A stretch of DNA of 32,000 bases from Alphaproteobacteria bacterium (GTDB lineage Bacteria; Pseudomonadota; Alphaproteobacteria; Rs-D84). Both the position numbers and the translations under genes were made by a program. Under the pieces are notes generated by a model. The model was not told the origin of the DNA. It saw nothing but the letters and a program-made list of their open reading frames with translations, and made no database searches. The stretch covers positions 1 to 32,000 of the forward strand of contig JAFVFD010000004.1 in NCBI GenBank assembly GCA_017475605.1, in the 5' to 3' direction. Every line of letters begins with the position of its first letter. Position 1 is the stretch's first letter. Shown here one piece after another: positions 8,016-23,328 of the stretch.

Positions 8016-8684
8016 GTGTAATTGGCGCGCCGAATATACAATATCGTTCGACACAACAATATGATCATATAATTCTATATTTAATCCCGCCAACACAGAC
8101 ATTACGTGTTTTGTTATTTCAATATCATCATTTGAAAAGGAATTATCTGACGCGGGGTGATTATGTACCATTACAATTGAACGCGCATTTTGTTCCAATG
8201 CGCGACGCGCTATTTCACGTGGATAAACTGCGCTGCTGTCAACAGTACCTGTGGTATGTATTTCATCACTAATCAACTTCAAATTATTATCAAGATAGAA
8301 TATATGTAATTCTTCGACCGATTTACCAGTCATTATTATACGACAATAATTATGTAATATTGTTTCGTTGTGAAATATCGGCGTGTCTTTCATTTGCCCC
8401 TTGTAATTTATGGTCATCATCTGCTGAACCAGTTTAAGAAAAATCGCTGTATTGCGCCCAACACCACGAACCGAAACTAATTCATCAATGGATGCAGACA
8501 AAACCTGATATACACCACCGAATTGTTTAACCAAACTGCGCGCCAATGGGCGCACATCGCGACGTGGTATTGCGTATGCCAAAAGTAATTCCAACTTTTC
8601 ATAGTCGGCTAATTGATTACTGACAAATTTGGCACGCAATCTGTCGCGATGACCGGCATAAAAGTTTTCGTCTTTATCCGGCAT
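8007..8684 (-). CDS. radC: RadC-family JAB/MPN domain protein, 225 aa
   Basis: N-terminal HhH (SIDELVSVRGVGRNTAIFLKLV) and a C-terminal JAB motif (IVMVHNHPASD.S.S..D...T). These are typical RadC features. Confidence 0.85.
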   Translation of the reverse strand: MPDKDENFYAGHRDRLRAKFVSNQLADYEKLELLLAYAIPRRDVRPLARSLVKQFGGVYQVLSASIDELVSVRGVGRNTAIFLKLVQQMMTINYKGQMKDTPIFHNETILHNYCRIIMTGKSVEELHIFYLDNNLKLISDEIHTTGTVDSSAVYPREIARRALEQNARSIVMVHNHPASDNSFSNDDIEITKHVMSVLAGLNIELYDHIVVSNDIVYSARQLHLL

Positions 8685-8698
8685 TTGCCCCCCCCCGC

Positions 8699-9460
8699 CT
8701 ATATCATACGTTCAGTAAAGATTGTAACACCATCTTCGGTAATGCCCAATGTGTGTTCCCATTGTGCCGACAGCCCCCCATCAACCGTACGCGCAGTCCA
8801 ACCGTCCGCATCAATTTTACATTCCGGACGACCGGTATTAATCATTGGTTCAATCGTGAATACCAAACCCGGCACCATTTTAACCTTGTCCCACATTTTG
8901 TCATAGAAATGATAAATCTGGGGATCGTCATGCATAACCTTGCCGATACCATGGCCAACGAAATCGCGCGAAATTGAAAACCCATGGGGTTTTACAACCG
9001 CTTCGATTGTTTTACCAATTTCGGACAATGGCACACCCGGCGCACAAATTGAAATAGCGGCATTTAACGCATCTTGGCATGTCTGGACTAATTCACGCGC
9101 ACGTGGCGACACATTACCAATCATATACATACGCGATGCGTCCCCATGCCACCCCTTGTATTCAGCAGTAAGGTCAACATTAACAATATCGCCGTCTTTT
9201 AATATCACATCATCACTTGGGATACCATGAACGATAACATCGTTAACCGATGTACAGATACTTTTTGGATACCCTTCGTACCCAAGGTCAGATGAACGCG
9301 CCCCATTTGCGCGCAAAAATTCTGCAACCATACGATCAATTTCACCGGTGGAAATCCCCGCCTTGATATATGGCGAAATATAATCAAAGCAGCGCGCGAC
9401 CAAATCGCCCGACACGCGCAAACGTTTAAAATCTTTTGGTGCATAAACAGATGCTAACAT
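8699..9460 (-). CDS. map: Type I methionine aminopeptidase, 253 aa
   Basis: Metal-ligand motifs are present: VIVHGIP, GDIVNVD, FVGHGIG, VFTIEPMIN, SAQWEHT. Confidence 0.9.
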   Translation of the reverse strand: MLASVYAPKDFKRLRVSGDLVARCFDYISPYIKAGISTGEIDRMVAEFLRANGARSSDLGYEGYPKSICTSVNDVIVHGIPSDDVILKDGDIVNVDLTAEYKGWHGDASRMYMIGNVSPRARELVQTCQDALNAAISICAPGVPLSEIGKTIEAVVKPHGFSISRDFVGHGIGKVMHDDPQIYHFYDKMWDKVKMVPGLVFTIEPMINTGRPECKIDADGWTARTVDGGLSAQWEHTLGITEDGVTIFTERMI

Positions 9461-18209: not shown

Positions 18210-18235
18210 AAATCCACCCGAAAGGGTGGTTTTTA
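18208..18235. terminator. Bidirectional terminator between nrdG and the convergent 524-aa gene
   Basis: CCACCC-gaaa-GGGTGG hairpin at 18214..18229, flanked by AAAAAT and TTTTTAT. Confidence 0.7.
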
Positions 18236-18236
18236 T

Positions 18237-19811
18237 TTAATTTGCGGAATGTCTGTGAATATATTTTTTTATTCGCCTATTTCGTTGTTTAAGAAATGCC
18301 ATTTCTTTTCTTGCTAAAACACGCCATTCGCGTACATTACTGGGGTAACCAGCAAATCGTTCATCGTCTTTTGTGTTGCGTCTAAGGAATATTTTAACCG
18401 CATACTTTCCACGTTTTTTCTTGACCAAATCTTGCAGCAAGAAAAAATCTATATATTCTTCAAACGTCCCGAACAGATTGAAAAACCAGGCATCCGCACT
18501 TAAAACATTTGTTAATGGTGTCGGGGTGTTTTTATCTTCGTACCAAATACGAATACATTCCATTGTTAAATCTATTCTGTCCGCCAGAACATATATATTT
18601 CCCCTTGATTGATTAACAGATTTCGGATCTTTTGGGAAAATCAGATTGCCACCGATGGTATAAGATTTATGAATATAAGTGTTTTTTCTTTTTTGATAAT
18701 TTCTGTCCTTCTCTAATTTTGTCAGTATCGGCATAATAAAGCGGTTATTGTGATGCGTATATAGATTGACAATGGTGTCCGCCCCCAACCTTTTAGTATC
18801 GTCGCCATTATAGCAAAGATAGTTTTCCATAAACGGCGATTCCGTTAATTTAAAGGGTTTTCCATTTGGCAAATCTTTATTATTCCACAGTAAAAAATGA
18901 TATCTGCGCAACAGTCTAGATTTCAAATCGGGGTCATTGTCAGAATTGTCCGTATTCCATAAATTGATTTCACAATCGTCTGAAAAATCGTGTTTTACAT
19001 CTATATCTTTTAAACACTTACATTGTTCGAACGCATCGCAATTTTTTTTCAGTTCCGCCATTTTTATACCATTTTGTTTTTGTAAATTATAATAAACATC
19101 TCGTACTGCATTTGGCAATTCATCGCCGTTTTTAGCATATTTAAGCGATGCATTTTGCCCGATTATTTTACAACCATTATAATTTCCCCCAAATATTTCA
19201 TATTTAAGTTTACCAATTGCTACTGTCTTTTTTATTGGTAATGTTATATTAAAATATTTTTCCATTTGTTCTTTGGCAGAACGGCCATTTACATAGATTG
19301 CTTCAAATGGCGATTCTGCCATTATTTGTTTCAGCAAACCATAACTGGCCAACGCACGATTTTTTATCAATTCGTTTTCATTCGCCCATGATTTTTTTGT
19401 TGCCCATGGGTATATATCCAGATGCACCAGAGTATCGTTATAATAGGATGCACCGAATAATTTATTCCCCATGTTTTCCATTTTATTGAACCAGTCATAT
19501 GGGTTGTTTTGGAAATATCCAATCAAAGATTCATAAACACATTCTGCATCAGTCTGACTTAACACATCGGTATCCATACACATCAAAGAACCTCTATCAA
19601 CAAATCGTTTATTGGTCCCCGTTAACAAAACACCACTGTTATTTGTAAATTCCAGTCCTGATGGATTGATGCCAATTGTCGCAAAACGCGCCTTTTCCGC
19701 ATTGCCAAAGAAAACCACAGGCACAGATTTTTCCACAATATCCATATTTTCCGGAATCGGATTTTCAAGATAGTTTATAATATATGCCCTTAATTTATTA
19801 CTAATACCCAT
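18237..19811 (-). CDS. Two-domain protein of unknown function, 524 aa (N-terminal half with Mug/UDG-superfamily-like motifs; C-terminal half unassigned)
   Basis: AGGGGG SD 9 nt before the ATG, and 67 nt downstream of the co-oriented ATPase gene. Residues 32-55, VVFFGNAEKARFATIGINPSGLEF, resemble the Mug motif VVFCGINPGLSS. The gene is strikingly AT-rich (12/60 G+C at 18661..18720 by hand count). Confidence 0.7.
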   Translation of the reverse strand: MGISNKLRAYIINYLENPIPENMDIVEKSVPVVFFGNAEKARFATIGINPSGLEFTNNSGVLLTGTNKRFVDRGSLMCMDTDVLSQTDAECVYESLIGYFQNNPYDWFNKMENMGNKLFGASYYNDTLVHLDIYPWATKKSWANENELIKNRALASYGLLKQIMAESPFEAIYVNGRSAKEQMEKYFNITLPIKKTVAIGKLKYEIFGGNYNGCKIIGQNASLKYAKNGDELPNAVRDVYYNLQKQNGIKMAELKKNCDAFEQCKCLKDIDVKHDFSDDCEINLWNTDNSDNDPDLKSRLLRRYHFLLWNNKDLPNGKPFKLTESPFMENYLCYNGDDTKRLGADTIVNLYTHHNNRFIMPILTKLEKDRNYQKRKNTYIHKSYTIGGNLIFPKDPKSVNQSRGNIYVLADRIDLTMECIRIWYEDKNTPTPLTNVLSADAWFFNLFGTFEEYIDFFLLQDLVKKKRGKYAVKIFLRRNTKDDERFAGYPSNVREWRVLARKEMAFLKQRNRRIKKYIHRHSAN

Positions 19812-19878
19812 TTATTATACCCCCTGATGTCCTGTTTTAAAATTATCATACAAAGTAATGGCATATTATGCTACGACT

Positions 19879-21948
19879 TTATTTAGCAAAGCCGATTTTT
19901 GCGTGGGTTGTTTCCCCCTTGACCGATTGTTCGGCGCGCAACATAGATATCAATTCAGATTTATCTGTGATATCCATAATTTCCGCCTTGGACTTTACAA
20001 CGCTAAAATCACCGGGGGCTAATTTAGTAAGGTCTGTAACATCGGCCACTGTAACAACCACCCCAAAGAAATCGTGAAACGCACGCACAACCATTTCCGG
20101 TGTTAAATAATCGTATTTAACCTTGAACGAGAATCGTCGCAGGGATGCCTTGTCCAAAGTATTCATAAGGTTTGTCGTACAAATAAACGGGTATTGCGCC
20201 GCCTCCATCTGGGTCAGCATTTCATTCACACAGCCTATTTCCCAACTGTGCATCGCATGCGACCGGTCGGTTAAAAAACTGTCCGCTTCATCAAATACCA
20301 ATATCGCCTTTTTCGCATTTGCTTCGGCAAAGGCGCGTGCGATATTTTGTTCTGTTTCACCGACAAACGCGCTTTTTAAATCACTGGCCCGTTTCTTTAA
20401 CAGCGGCATTCCCAGCGTTTCCGCCAAATATGTCGCATATGCCGTTTTACCCGTTCCCGGCGCGCCATACAGGCACAACGAAAATCGACGCATATTTTTA
20501 TCTTTGATTTTGTCCGCCAACACCTTTAAATCGGTATCCGTATTTAACAGCGAAACATCAAACGCAACCCCATTGTCATTTTTAATCGCTGGCGCAACCC
20601 CGGTCATCGCCATTGTTAAATTATCCAACGTATATTCAATAATATTTTCATCACCTAAAACCTTGGCATTTTTAACGGCGGTATCAACCAATGCCATTGG
20701 AACATTGTATTTGCCAATCAATTTTTTTAACCTTTCTGGCGACACCCCAAGATTATATTTATCGAACACGCGTTGCCATGCGTTTTGTTTCGCCGCATCA
20801 CCCGGATCAGACATTTTCAATGCAAATGTAAAACGACGAATATATGCCCGGTCCATTGTCCGAATATTATTCGTAATCCAAATAACAGGCTTTTTATTTT
20901 TTTCCAACTTGTTGTTTATATATAACTTGCTGGGGGTATTAACATTAAACGGATTCAATGAAAATACATCTTCGGCTTCGTCAAACAACACGATACTGTT
21001 GGTATCTTGCTTTAATATTGTTTGAACCTGGGCCAGATTGCTTAACCGCGCATCTTTATCGCTTTTTTCTGCATTGGTGGCATATAAATCTTTGCCGATA
21101 TCCGCACAGACTGCCTTGGCAAATTCGGTTTTTCCACACCCCGGTTCACCATACAGCAATATATTTACCCCGACTGTATCCGATTCAGTTGCGTGGCGCA
21201 GTATTTCCTTGATTTTATCAAAGTCATCGGCAATATATTCAAAGTTATTTTTCGTTAATTCTGTTTTAAGCGGTTCGCCCACAATAAGATTTCGCACATC
21301 GCGTGGTGTATCAAAATGCATCCCCAGCAGTTTTTTAAACATTACCGAAAAATCGTTATCACCAAATTTCTGAACCAATATGCCAGATTCAAACAGCGGA
21401 CTGTTTTGCGCCATGGCGCGCTGGATATTTTCAAGTGGCACCCCGGTCAACACCGCCAGGAAATCTTCACTTTCTTCACTCATAATATCGTTGCGCATGA
21501 TAACAAATTCATTTATAACGCGACGCAGCGGTTGAACCCGATTGATAGCCACAAATGCCTGTAAAATCGGCCGGCAATAGTCCGGCAAATAAAATGCATC
21601 ACACAACACATTAAAGTTTTTATCAAATGTTGGTTGCGTAATATCTACGACAAGTTCTGAACGGTATGCGTCCAGTATTTTGGACAAAGTATCCTGTGTT
21701 TTTTTATTTGGGACCATATCACACACGACAACCCTGCCCTGAAGCAGATTTTCCAAAAACACAGATTTACACTCGGTCGACACATGACCGGGCGCATCTT
21801 CTATCAATTTGCGAAAATCAAACCCGAACAAATCTTCGGAATAACGCGCAACGAATCTAAAGAATGTATCATAGTCATTGGGTTCGGCTTCGCCCGCAAC
21901 CAGGTTCTTTAAATAGTACAACGTTATTTGTCTTTCTTTTATGTTCAT
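19879..21948 (-). CDS. Tandem classical-AAA+ ATPase, 689 aa (about 250-aa unknown N-domain plus two AAA modules)
   Basis: AAA-1 has Walker A GEPGCGKT, Walker B IVLFDEAED, sensor VIWITNN and RRFTF. AAA-2 has Walker A GAPGTGKT, FVGETEQNIARAFAEA, Walker B ILVFDEADSF, FICTTNL and SLRRFSF (classical FtsH/Cdc48-like clade). AAGGA SD precedes the start. Confidence 0.85.
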   Translation of the reverse strand: MNIKERQITLYYLKNLVAGEAEPNDYDTFFRFVARYSEDLFGFDFRKLIEDAPGHVSTECKSVFLENLLQGRVVVCDMVPNKKTQDTLSKILDAYRSELVVDITQPTFDKNFNVLCDAFYLPDYCRPILQAFVAINRVQPLRRVINEFVIMRNDIMSEESEDFLAVLTGVPLENIQRAMAQNSPLFESGILVQKFGDNDFSVMFKKLLGMHFDTPRDVRNLIVGEPLKTELTKNNFEYIADDFDKIKEILRHATESDTVGVNILLYGEPGCGKTEFAKAVCADIGKDLYATNAEKSDKDARLSNLAQVQTILKQDTNSIVLFDEAEDVFSLNPFNVNTPSKLYINNKLEKNKKPVIWITNNIRTMDRAYIRRFTFALKMSDPGDAAKQNAWQRVFDKYNLGVSPERLKKLIGKYNVPMALVDTAVKNAKVLGDENIIEYTLDNLTMAMTGVAPAIKNDNGVAFDVSLLNTDTDLKVLADKIKDKNMRRFSLCLYGAPGTGKTAYATYLAETLGMPLLKKRASDLKSAFVGETEQNIARAFAEANAKKAILVFDEADSFLTDRSHAMHSWEIGCVNEMLTQMEAAQYPFICTTNLMNTLDKASLRRFSFKVKYDYLTPEMVVRAFHDFFGVVVTVADVTDLTKLAPGDFSVVKSKAEIMDITDKSELISMLRAEQSVKGETTHAKIGFAK

Positions 21949-22076: not shown

Positions 22077-23141
22077 ATGCGTAAAAACTTTGCCAGAACC
22101 CATATCATGATTGACTTAATTACCATGCTTCAAGTTAACCCAATGACCGAGCAGGAAATTAAGCAGTTTTTATACTCGCAATACCGGGCCAGGCACCTTT
22201 TACGTCGTGGCACATACGAAATAAGCGACAAAACCGTCCAACGTTGGCTTTCCGATATAAAAAAGGAATATCCCGGTTGCCTTACCAAAGAAGGCGAAGA
22301 CCCCGAAACCGAAAAACCCAGATACCAATTATACATTGATGATTACCCCGCAGTGATTGAAGAAACCGAATTACAGGCCCTGCACAACGCAATCAAGCGC
22401 ATTTCCAATGACCCAAATGCCCGGGCGACATTGGGACTTTTAGAGGCAAAATTGTGGAACCGCTTTCAAACCGTCATGAAACACAAATCAACAAATGCCG
22501 CCACATACTATCGCGAATTAAATGAATCAGATATGCTTATCAATTCGGAAATGGTTGTGGTCGGCCCCCGCGCCCGATTTGACATTGACCCGAATATAAA
22601 AAAGACCATAGACAAGGCAATCGTAAAATCTGAAAAAGTTATCATTGAATATCATGGCGCAAAACGAACAATTCGACCAATGGGTGTGTTTTACGGCGAC
22701 AACAATGTATATCTGGTTGCGTTTGCGGAAAAAGATGGCAAACCGGTTGACACGACCCCATGGACATACAGATTGTCTGATATTACCGATGCCCGCAACA
22801 CACGCCAAAGATTCCCCAGCGACCCGACATTTTCAATAAAAGATTATACAAATAAAATGTTCGGGGTGTACAACGATCGTAACATATACGATATTGAATG
22901 GCTTATTGACAAGTCCGTTGTGCCCGAGGCTAAACGTTACACATTCCACCCGTCCCAGGGGGATTTTATCGATAACCCAGATGGTTCCGCGACCCTGCGT
23001 ATGCGTTGTGGCGGGCTGGATGCGATTTGTTCCCACCTGTTCCAATGGAACGGCAAAATCACACCCGTTGCCCCCGCCGAATTGGTCGCACGATATCGCG
23101 AACGGTTAAAAAACACATTAGCAACATTACCCGCGAAATAA
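22077..23141 (+). CDS. WYL-domain transcriptional regulator (wHTH-WYL-C-terminal extension; BrxR/CapW-like), 354 aa
   Basis: N-terminal wHTH (MIDLITMLQVNPMTEQEI...DKTVQRWLSDI). WYL-type core (VIIEYHGAKRTIRPMGVFYGDNNVYLVAFAEKDGKP...TYRLSDITDA). GGGGG SD precedes the start. Confidence 0.75.
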   Translation: MRKNFARTHIMIDLITMLQVNPMTEQEIKQFLYSQYRARHLLRRGTYEISDKTVQRWLSDIKKEYPGCLTKEGEDPETEKPRYQLYIDDYPAVIEETELQALHNAIKRISNDPNARATLGLLEAKLWNRFQTVMKHKSTNAATYYRELNESDMLINSEMVVVGPRARFDIDPNIKKTIDKAIVKSEKVIIEYHGAKRTIRPMGVFYGDNNVYLVAFAEKDGKPVDTTPWTYRLSDITDARNTRQRFPSDPTFSIKDYTNKMFGVYNDRNIYDIEWLIDKSVVPEAKRYTFHPSQGDFIDNPDGSATLRMRCGGLDAICSHLFQWNGKITPVAPAELVARYRERLKNTLATLPAK

Positions 23142-23145
23142 ACCG

Positions 23146-23328
23146 CTATCTTGAAAAAAGAAAGCGTCCGCGTTCATCATAAACCGTTGTAATATTACCA
23201 ACCCGAACACTTACGGTTGAATCATTATATCCAACCAGTGTCCCGGAAAGAGTACATTTGAATTCACCGCGTGTACCGTATACAGTTACGATGTTATTGC
23301 CGGTTTGTTTTACAAGTCCTATTGACAT
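23146..23328 (-). CDS. Small beta-rich protein with an internal repeat, 60 aa
   Basis: AAGGA SD at the same spacing as the ATPase gene. The 5' region is paralogous to that of the ATPase operon. Internal repeat: NIVTVYGTRGEF / NITTVYDERGRF. Confidence 0.55.
   Translation of the reverse strand: MSIGLVKQTGNNIVTVYGTRGEFKCTLSGTLVGYNDSTVSVRVGNITTVYDERGRFLFSR

Follow-up and report, generated by a model that had tools for sequence, protein, structure and literature searches.

The 32,000-nucleotide window analysed here (positions 1 to 32,000 of the forward strand of contig JAFVFD010000004.1, from an alphaproteobacterium of the Rs-D84 lineage) carries a gene for a 524-amino-acid protein, which we tentatively read as a two-module defence enzyme that targets modified DNA. 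According to the open reading frame (ORF) list and its translation, the whole coding sequence, stop codon included, occupies positions 18237–19811 of the minus strand. An earlier note on this DNA, written from the letters alone, had given an ORF of 524 aa at these positions; the length was borne out, and the minus strand, which it had left unstated, is to be added, the plus-strand reading of 18237–19811 being full of stops. Direct reading of the sequence places a ribosome-binding site (AGGGGG, 19820–19825, minus strand) 8 nt before the ATG, and a terminator scan identified a bidirectional terminator-like hairpin (18214–18229) just past the stop codon, common to the convergent nrdG gene. The gene is present in one copy in the 817-kb genome (94% complete), and its GC content (0.35–0.375) lies below that of its flanks (0.41–0.44). 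Its product consists of an N-terminal domain with the fold of the uracil-DNA glycosylase (UDG) superfamily (residues 1–250; 19062–19811), assigned from a family search, an AlphaFold2 model and structural matches, an inter-domain linker (residues 251–269; 19005–19061), and a C-terminal domain (residues 270–514; 18270–19004) that belongs to Pfam DUF6994 (PF22507) and is modelled with a GmrSD_C/DUF1524-like nuclease fold, all on the minus strand. The linker was delimited by the drop of the predicted local distance difference test score (pLDDT) to 58–64 at the end of the N-domain model and by the start of the DUF6994 match at residue 270.

The AlphaFold2 model of residues 1–265, built on an alignment of 87 relatives (A1), reached a pLDDT of 92.9 and a predicted template modelling score of 0.88. 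Foldseek, run on the PDB, yielded 35 matches at E≤1e-3, all of them UDG-superfamily entries, as were the further matches listed; the best was the family 4 UDG of S. tokodaii (4zby, E 3e-5), followed by UdgX, TDG and others. VIA-align, a structural search independent of Foldseek that covered 48,161 chains, matched the domain to a family 5 UDG (2d3y, Z 12.1, root-mean-square deviation 3.4 over 177 aa), a family 4 UDG (1l9g, Z 11.4), UdgX (6ail, Z 11.2), a Bradyrhizobium UNG (Z 9.3), TDG (Z 8.7), SMUG1 (Z 8.3), SMUG2 (Z 7.8), MUG (Z 7.1 and 6.8) and vaccinia D4 (Z 6.5), with unrelated folds at Z≤5.2. A look-up in the ESM Atlas pointed to the UDG fold too. By both VIA-align and Foldseek, the modelled alpha/beta fold with its central parallel sheet superposes on solved UDGs, and motif 1 of the superfamily, a G-x-x-P-x loop after the first core strand that bears the water-activating residue, has its equivalent in G47-I-N49-P50-S51 (19659–19673, minus strand), which follows straight after the predicted strand 43–47 and was located from conservation and the model. 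The predicted UDG-superfamily fold of residues 1–250 is well supported, because the top matches of both structural searches fall in this superfamily and unrelated folds reach only the low scores given above. The UDG-like fold that had been proposed for the N-terminal half from its motifs therefore stands: above a Z of about 5 the model matches the UDG superfamily only and, since all top matches belong there, neither a lack of UDG-fold matches nor a confident unrelated fold was encountered. The specific likeness to Mug did not hold up, the scores of Mug (7.1 and 6.8) and TDG (8.7) being lower than those of families 4 and 5 and UdgX (11.2–12.1).

The N-terminal domain is a member of a large family. 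Searched exhaustively with HMMER, a set of 1.84 billion cluster representatives yielded 841 relatives at E≤1e-3, of which 449 passed E≤1e-10. Each stands for a cluster at 50% identity, and most members are stand-alone proteins of 240–260 aa. The stretch that the earlier note had quoted for residues 32–55 (VVFFGNAEKARFATIGINPSGLEF) agrees letter for letter with the translation, and the UDG-like motifs picked out there proved to be the most conserved columns of a real family (HMMER; 87-member alignment). The suspicion that the resemblance might be coincidental can thus be set aside, the motifs being the signature of the family. Conservation was taken from the 87 relatives in A1. In the FG motif (F35 and G36), G36 is 100% conserved, and the signature loop reads A-T-[LI]-G-[IL]-N49-P50-S51-x-x-E54-F55, with N49 at 98% and P50, S51, E54 and F55 at 100%. 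R69 of the KRF motif is likewise conserved at 100%, and the LVHLDIYPWAT strand (H130-L-D132-x-x-x-W136-A-T138) retains H130 in 88%, D132 in 98%, W136 in 91% and T138 in 100% of the relatives, followed by the YVNG motif with N175 at 91% and G176 at 98%. Motif 2 of the superfamily, of the HPS or NPS type, comes after the last core strand, stabilises the leaving group and forms a loop that intercalates into DNA. Around the end of strand 214–219 the alignment shows G218 (80%), W219 (72%), Ser or Asn at 220 and N222 (58%), where the 524-aa protein reads G-Q-N-A-S, and no conserved motif-2 His is found near this strand.

The domain shares its fold with UDG families 2/3 (Mug, TDG, SMUG1) and 4/5 (T. 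thermophilus, T. maritima), and its G-I-N-P-x loop with Mug, in which motif 1 reads GINPG. However, it differs from known families 2–5 in that an invariant Ser closes motif 1, with x-x-E-F after it, and no HPS or NPSGLS motif 2 is evident in the family. The four conserved Cys that hold the 4Fe-4S cluster in families 4/5 are missing as well: just two columns of the alignment exceed 30% Cys (64% and 47%), neither of them invariant. Moreover, the domain is about 60–90 residues longer than the matched solved UDG chains (188–219 aa) and Mug (168 aa). The Asn of the GINPG/GMNPG loop in Mug/TDG and SMUG positions the water, and mutagenesis of UNG has shown that an acidic residue in place of the base-reading Asn favours a cytosine derivative. 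The near-invariant D132 on the HLD strand may stand at the place of this base-reading Asn, where it would favour a cytosine derivative as the substrate.

Libraries of protein families proved uninformative for this domain. NCBIfam, PADLOC and PHROGs yielded no model for either half of the protein, and Pfam yielded none for residues 1–270. When the 87 relatives were scanned one by one, sub-threshold matches to PF03167, the Pfam UDG family, appeared in 11 (best E 6e-4), and no other family recurred. A hidden Markov model (HMM) built from A1 found no match among 33 real UDGs, including E. coli Mug, and an HMM of family 4 gave four weak local matches only among 155 members of the N-terminal family (hmmsearch E 0.0075–0.077). 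The sole region of local alignment in the profile comparison with real UDGs was EAIYVNGRSAKEQ, comprising a helix, strand 3 and a Gly stretch, which weakly matched family 4 UDGs (hhalign E 0.018) and, over 26 residues, the E. coli Mug segment ALAILGKQAYEQ (hhalign E 0.083, also weak). Neither the A1 profile nor A2, the corresponding profile of DUF6994, had a match among PDB sequences; tblastn with the N domain found none in 50,697 phage records, and IMG/VR contained no close relative of it. No description of the N-terminal UDG-fold family was found in the searchable literature.

The C-terminal half had been described in the earlier note as matching nothing that could be named. This was wrong: residues 270–514 match PF22507 (DUF6994) with 176 bits against a cut-off of 27 (E 1.3e-51), over model positions 1–226 of 226. 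Close homologues number about 114, nearly all of them stand-alone proteins of 230–260 aa, and a pattern scan with one genome per species revealed relatives in at least 574 species, with hosts that include gut and rumen Firmicutes, Bacteroidales, Saccharibacteria, Melainabacteria, Actinobacteria and Methanomassiliicoccales. All 23 residues that are invariant in DUF6994 are retained in the 524-aa protein, including D293, D295, H305, N400, D411, R412, D414 and E418 (whole-protein numbering). The AlphaFold2 model of this domain (pLDDT 93.6) had no significant Foldseek match. In VIA-align, 14 of the 48,161 chains reached Z≥2, the best match being residues 439–580 of BrxU, of the GmrSD family (7p9k, Z 9.1, root-mean-square deviation 3.8 over 138 aa), followed by the nuclease domains of SspE (its C-terminal domain) and DndI (Z 5.7 each), and then by Cas9 HNH domains (Z 2.4–2.7) and endonuclease I. 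In agreement with these matches, the Pfam curators independently describe DUF6994 as having an HNH or type IV-restriction-like beta-beta-alpha core with two invariant Asp, in which the catalytic His is replaced by Ala (PMC11701544). The His-Me-finger nucleases of the GmrSD_C/DUF1524 group have a catalytic (D/E)-H ... N ... H/N motif. An hhalign comparison of A2 with 22 GmrSD_C domains was not significant (E 0.08); it laid YTIGGN-LIFP on LGNLxLL and N400 on the HNH Asn, with no His opposite the EH of EHIxPQ, and this weak alignment is compatible at the sequence level with the curators' account. PF07510 (GmrSD_C) had no match in the 524-aa protein, nor did the A2 profile significantly match any of 25 GmrSD proteins. 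On the strength of its model, the C-terminal domain is thus predicted to adopt the fold of the GmrSD/BrxU/SspE/DndI nuclease domain, with a non-canonical invariant acidic set. Elsewhere, in locus L173 (4116–7038), an ORF containing GmrSD_C overlaps the start of a DUF6994 ORF, and a GmrSD_C gene lies within 6 kb in 4 of 80 DUF6994 loci. The ESM Atlas also holds a cluster of DUF6508–DUF6994 fusions and proteins of 730–907 aa that contain the DUF6994 fold.

Among the 150 best representatives of the N-terminal family, about 40 carry extra domains, and DUF6994 is found in the 524-aa protein only. A split counterpart exists in loci L120/L121 as a two-gene insert among the housekeeping genes lptD, rlmN, fabZ and lpxD: a stand-alone UDG-like gene of 241 aa, which shares 40% identity with the N domain, faces a DUF6994 gene of 252 aa (E 4e-46 with the A2 profile) in convergent orientation, with 28 bp between them. 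The natural fusion together with this split pair says that the two putative activities share one substrate. Two other candidates were rejected: the closest stand-alone DUF6994 gene, in L005, has upstream of it a 298-aa gene that is unrelated to the UDG-like family, and in P0007, the nearest two-domain relative, the C-terminal half is different and matches no named family. A complex prediction with the two halves as separate chains scored 0.00, which counts neither for nor against binding. The family members P0101 and P0119 have an N-terminal thymidylate-synthase-like domain (E 1e-21 and 2e-26), which hints at a link to pyrimidine modification chemistry. Other additions include sigma-70 regions 2 and 4 in P0138 and a TY-Chap3 domain in P0130.

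Upstream of the gene, on the same strand and separated from it by 67 bp, lies a gene for a 689-aa tandem AAA+ ATPase (19879–21948, minus strand), a possible operon partner. This protein matches Pfam AAA twice, is IetA-like according to PADLOC, and matches the phage protein family phrog_10401 ('ATPase') nearly end to end (E 9e-89). Its homologues number more than 1,800, and many come from metagenome-assembled genomes that their sources name Alphaproteobacteria. No terminator was found in the 67-bp gap. A promoter-like site is present there; such sites are no commoner in the sequence than in shuffles. The ATPase gene is followed by a divergent WYL/WCX regulator (22077–23141, plus strand; Pfam and PADLOC), its recurrent partner: a WYL homologue occurs in 10–11 of 20 other ATPase loci. 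The possibility of a general, conserved pairing of the ATPase with an effector was considered and rejected, WYL alone being recurrent in these 20 loci. The genes downstream of the ATPase are variable there; their products are mostly unrelated, about 200 aa long and devoid of Pfam matches. In L075, which contains the closest relative of the ATPase (80% identity) and has the same WYL and nrdG/nrdD flanks, the slot of the 524-aa gene is occupied by a 206-aa HNH_3 protein (8115–8735; 24.6 bits, just short of the cut-off of 24.8) that also matches NUMOD4 faintly, which represents either effector swapping or a homing-endonuclease-like insert. Some of the closest stand-alone relatives of the N domain do accompany the ATPase, in two other settings. 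In L114/L115, an ATPase (55% identical), a 132-aa gene, DUF2779, a GNAT acetyltransferase and a UDG-like gene share one strand, as do WYL, a UDG-like gene, a 131-aa gene and an ATPase in L204.

Relatives of the N domain also occur in the company of restriction genes. They lie beside GmrSD genes in L116 and L118 and next to a ResIII+RE_endonuc protein in L212, while in L203 WYL and a GmrSD_N protein are found 4–5 kb from the UDG-like gene. On three contigs that are unrelated to one another, DUF2779 lies no more than a few kb from a stand-alone UDG-like gene (L114:5563–7032, L118:15032–16756 and L202:4523–5986). In the window itself, EVE-McrB and McrC come after the WYL/WCX regulator, in the same segment as the 524-aa gene. 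The idea of a defence effector, put forward in the earlier note, fits this genomic context, and the thematic link that it drew to the neighbouring EVE-McrBC amounts to adjacency only.

The 524-aa gene is accessory. No member of the N-terminal family was detected in 400 further genomes of this phylum, one of which, G314, belongs to the same genus. In G314, the interval from nrdG to tRNA-Ser (G314:C4:115900–123200, L074) carries other genes in place of the segment with WYL, the ATPase, the UDG-DUF6994 gene and McrBC, namely those for a class I aminoacyl-tRNA synthetase, three glycosyltransferases and an outer-membrane beta-barrel protein. The host has, besides, two canonical Pfam-UDG proteins, one with the family 1 GQDPY motif (G000:C1:301574–302053) and one that clusters with family 4 of the GEAPG type (G000:C1:371654–372061).

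We therefore interpret the 524-aa protein as a DNA-targeting, modification-dependent (type IV-like) defence protein composed of a glycosylase-like and a nuclease-like module, because of both predicted folds, the retention of the invariant polar residues, the fusion and the split pair, its accessory status and the neighbours of its relatives. The balance for this interpretation is nearly even, tipping slightly to the side of doubt. We infer the chemistry of the two domains, the substrate base, the order of events and the dependence on the ATPase as follows, on the most economical scheme, which takes two steps. The UDG-fold domain would scan DNA and flip a non-canonical base into its pocket, where it would probably hydrolyse the glycosidic bond and leave an abasic site, with the near-invariant Asn49 of the G-I-N-P-S loop in the water-positioning role that the corresponding Asn has in Mug/TDG and SMUG. 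At or close to the abasic site, the DNA would next be cut, or processed in another way, by the DUF6994 domain. The protein may share a transcript with the WYL-controlled tandem AAA+ ATPase upstream and be licensed by it. A more specific version, in which a UDG-fold family marked by GINPS-x-x-EF removes a phage-specific modified base, the His-less DUF6994 incises the abasic site as a new kind of beta-beta-alpha enzyme, and the WYL-regulated ATPase switches the system on, is conceivable but doubtful in its entirety.

Three groups of known systems resemble the proposed enzyme and supply a published precedent for each of its elements. Brig1, Brig2 and Brig3 are anti-phage DNA glycosylases of the UDG superfamily (PMC11078745; 10.1101/2025.10.29.685425; 10.64898/2026.02.25.707755). 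As with the N domain, their divergent UDG-superfamily fold is detectable mainly by structure, and the best match of Brig1, the S. tokodaii UDG 4ZBY, comes first in Foldseek here as well; both the Brig genes and the 524-aa gene are sporadic and island-borne, with an expected excision of phage-specific modified bases. However, each Brig protein consists of one domain, and Brig3 acts together with a distinct protein, the sugar hydrolase BapA, whereas the 524-aa protein has a fused nuclease-like DUF6994. Compared by description, Brig1 and Brig3 have Tyr/Glu or Asp around positions 120–150, whereas the N-terminal family has its GINPS Asn loop near residue 50. The GmrSD-family type IV enzymes (BrxU, 7p9k; the C-terminal domains of SspE and DndI) possess the DUF1524/GmrSD_C nuclease fold that the C-terminal domain matches (Z 9.1, 5.7 and 5.7, respectively) and, as proposed for the 524-aa protein, combine an N-terminal sensor with a C-terminal nuclease that acts on modified DNA. 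Nevertheless, their sensor is a DUF262/ParB-like NTPase rather than a UDG fold, and the 524-aa protein has no Pfam GmrSD_C match, its DUF6994 lacking the canonical catalytic His. In END nucleases, which target hypermodified phage DNA, an inactive glycosylase fold of the EndoIII type and a type IIS-like nuclease form one protein (PMC12191111), so that a DNA-glycosylase fold is joined to a nuclease module, as it is to a nuclease-like one in the 524-aa protein; their sensor and cutter are modular and swappable, which we count as a further likeness. This likeness is architectural only, as the sensor is of the HhH/EndoIII type instead of the UDG fold and the nuclease differs too. Moreover, the END sensor is inactive, whereas the glycosylase-type Asn loop is conserved in the 524-aa protein, and its UDG-fold domain may therefore be active.

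Several observations weigh against the interpretation as a modification-dependent defence enzyme. Residues 1–270 have no match to PF03167 even at E≤10, profile comparisons with real UDGs give a weak local match only, and the motif-2 equivalent is loosely conserved, with Q at position 219 in the 524-aa protein. The canonical His of the His-Me nucleases is missing from DUF6994, and the best Z of the C-terminal domain, 9.1, is little above the noise ceiling of 7–8 stated for VIA-align. No UDG-like or DUF6994 gene occurs in any of the 20 other ATPase loci, nor does a UDG-like neighbour in any of the 80 DUF6994 loci; the UDG-like/DUF6994 pairing and the ATPase pairing are both minority events. UDG-like relatives are also found in ordinary, non-defence contexts (L208, L215 and L218), and the thymidylate-synthase fusions hint that some members of the N-terminal family may act in nucleotide metabolism. 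Housekeeping repair is the explanation that such ordinary neighbourhoods would favour: the protein would be a third, divergent repair glycosylase of the host with an accessory domain and no role in phage defence, in line with the primary function of the UDG superfamily and with relatives that lie among ordinary genes (the three loci just named, and L120 with its flanking lpxD, fabZ and lptD). We consider it very improbable, as the host already has two canonical UDGs and the gene is absent from the same-genus genome and from the 400 genomes of the phylum, has a GC content below that of its flanks, and has the WYL-AAA+ module on one side and nrdG on the other, EVE-McrBC being part of the same segment, while its relatives recur beside GmrSD and restriction genes.

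The remaining alternatives keep the defence role and divide the labour differently. If the UDG-fold domain were a catalytically dead sensor of modified bases, the DUF6994 nuclease-like domain would do all the chemistry, for which the inactive EndoIII domain of END nucleases sets a precedent (PMC12191111). The lack of a conserved motif-2 His, a score below the Pfam UDG threshold and the full conservation of the nuclease-fold partner would suit such a division, but Mug and TDG are likewise without the motif-2 His, and the motif-1 Asn, catalytic in Mug/TDG/SMUG-type enzymes, is conserved at 98% together with P50, S51, E54 and F55, which is more than binding seems to need. Most members of the N-terminal family are, moreover, stand-alone proteins of 250 aa with no nuclease attached, and must therefore have an activity of their own; we judge a dead sensor unlikely. 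The opposite division, with base excision by the N domain, a non-catalytic DNA-binding or regulatory DUF6994, and defence through abasic sites alone, gains from Brig1 and Brig3, which defend without a nuclease, from the missing catalytic His and from the non-significant hhalign comparison with GmrSD_C (E 0.08). It appears still less probable than the dead sensor, and improbable by any measure, given the unusually many invariant charged residues kept by DUF6994 (the eight listed above), which are typical of an active site, and its wide occurrence as a stand-alone protein in the genomes of at least 574 species, which implies a function of its own. Between these two in likelihood, and thus also distinctly unlikely, is an abortive-infection effector gated by the ATPase, by which the WYL and tandem AAA+ system would exert its toxicity: once the ATPase senses infection, the protein would damage host as well as phage DNA, and its target base may be a normal one. 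The same-strand arrangement with a 67-bp gap and no terminator after the ATPase, the resemblance of the latter to IetA, and the presence of a UDG-like gene (L114/L115, L204) or an HNH gene (L075) in homologous ATPase modules are consistent with it; however, the gene downstream of the ATPase is not conserved, WYL is the sole recurrent partner in 20 loci, most UDG-like and DUF6994 genes occur without the ATPase, and the gap contains the promoter-like site described above, of a kind no commoner than in shuffles.

Defence DNA glycosylases (Brig1–3 and Dag) and glycosylase-fold readers fused to nucleases (END) have been recognised only in 2024–2026, and few families are known. The general strategy proposed for the 524-aa protein is known; what is new is a UDG-fold family without a Pfam model, its fusion to DUF6994, and a functional clue for the latter. 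The locus points to a sizeable family (841 clusters) for which the libraries searched contain neither a Pfam model nor a family annotation; its active-site-like loop is sharply conserved, and it occurs in the company of type IV restriction genes. It also provides a first functional handle on DUF6994, a widespread domain with a predicted GmrSD-type nuclease fold and an altered catalytic set. Were the interpretation of the protein as a modification-dependent defence enzyme true, it would add a new enzyme for detecting or cutting modified DNA bases and widen the repertoire of modification-dependent immunity; were the more specific version with excision followed by incision true, a first function for DUF6994 and a new family of defence glycosylases would be defined.

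Small genes accompany the ATPase modules as well. A protein of about 131 aa (L114:3916–4314 and L204:2220–2615; 50% identical to each other) adjoins the ATPase in both loci that bear a UDG-like gene, and tblastn detected no counterpart of it in the window. Beside the WYL gene of the window, a 60-aa ORF (23146–23328, minus strand) shares 53% identity with a 71-aa ORF of L075 (4611–4826) and 42% with a 61-aa ORF of L098, from the same genus (8213–8398), and appears to be a third, conserved component of the module formed by WYL and the tandem AAA+ ATPase.

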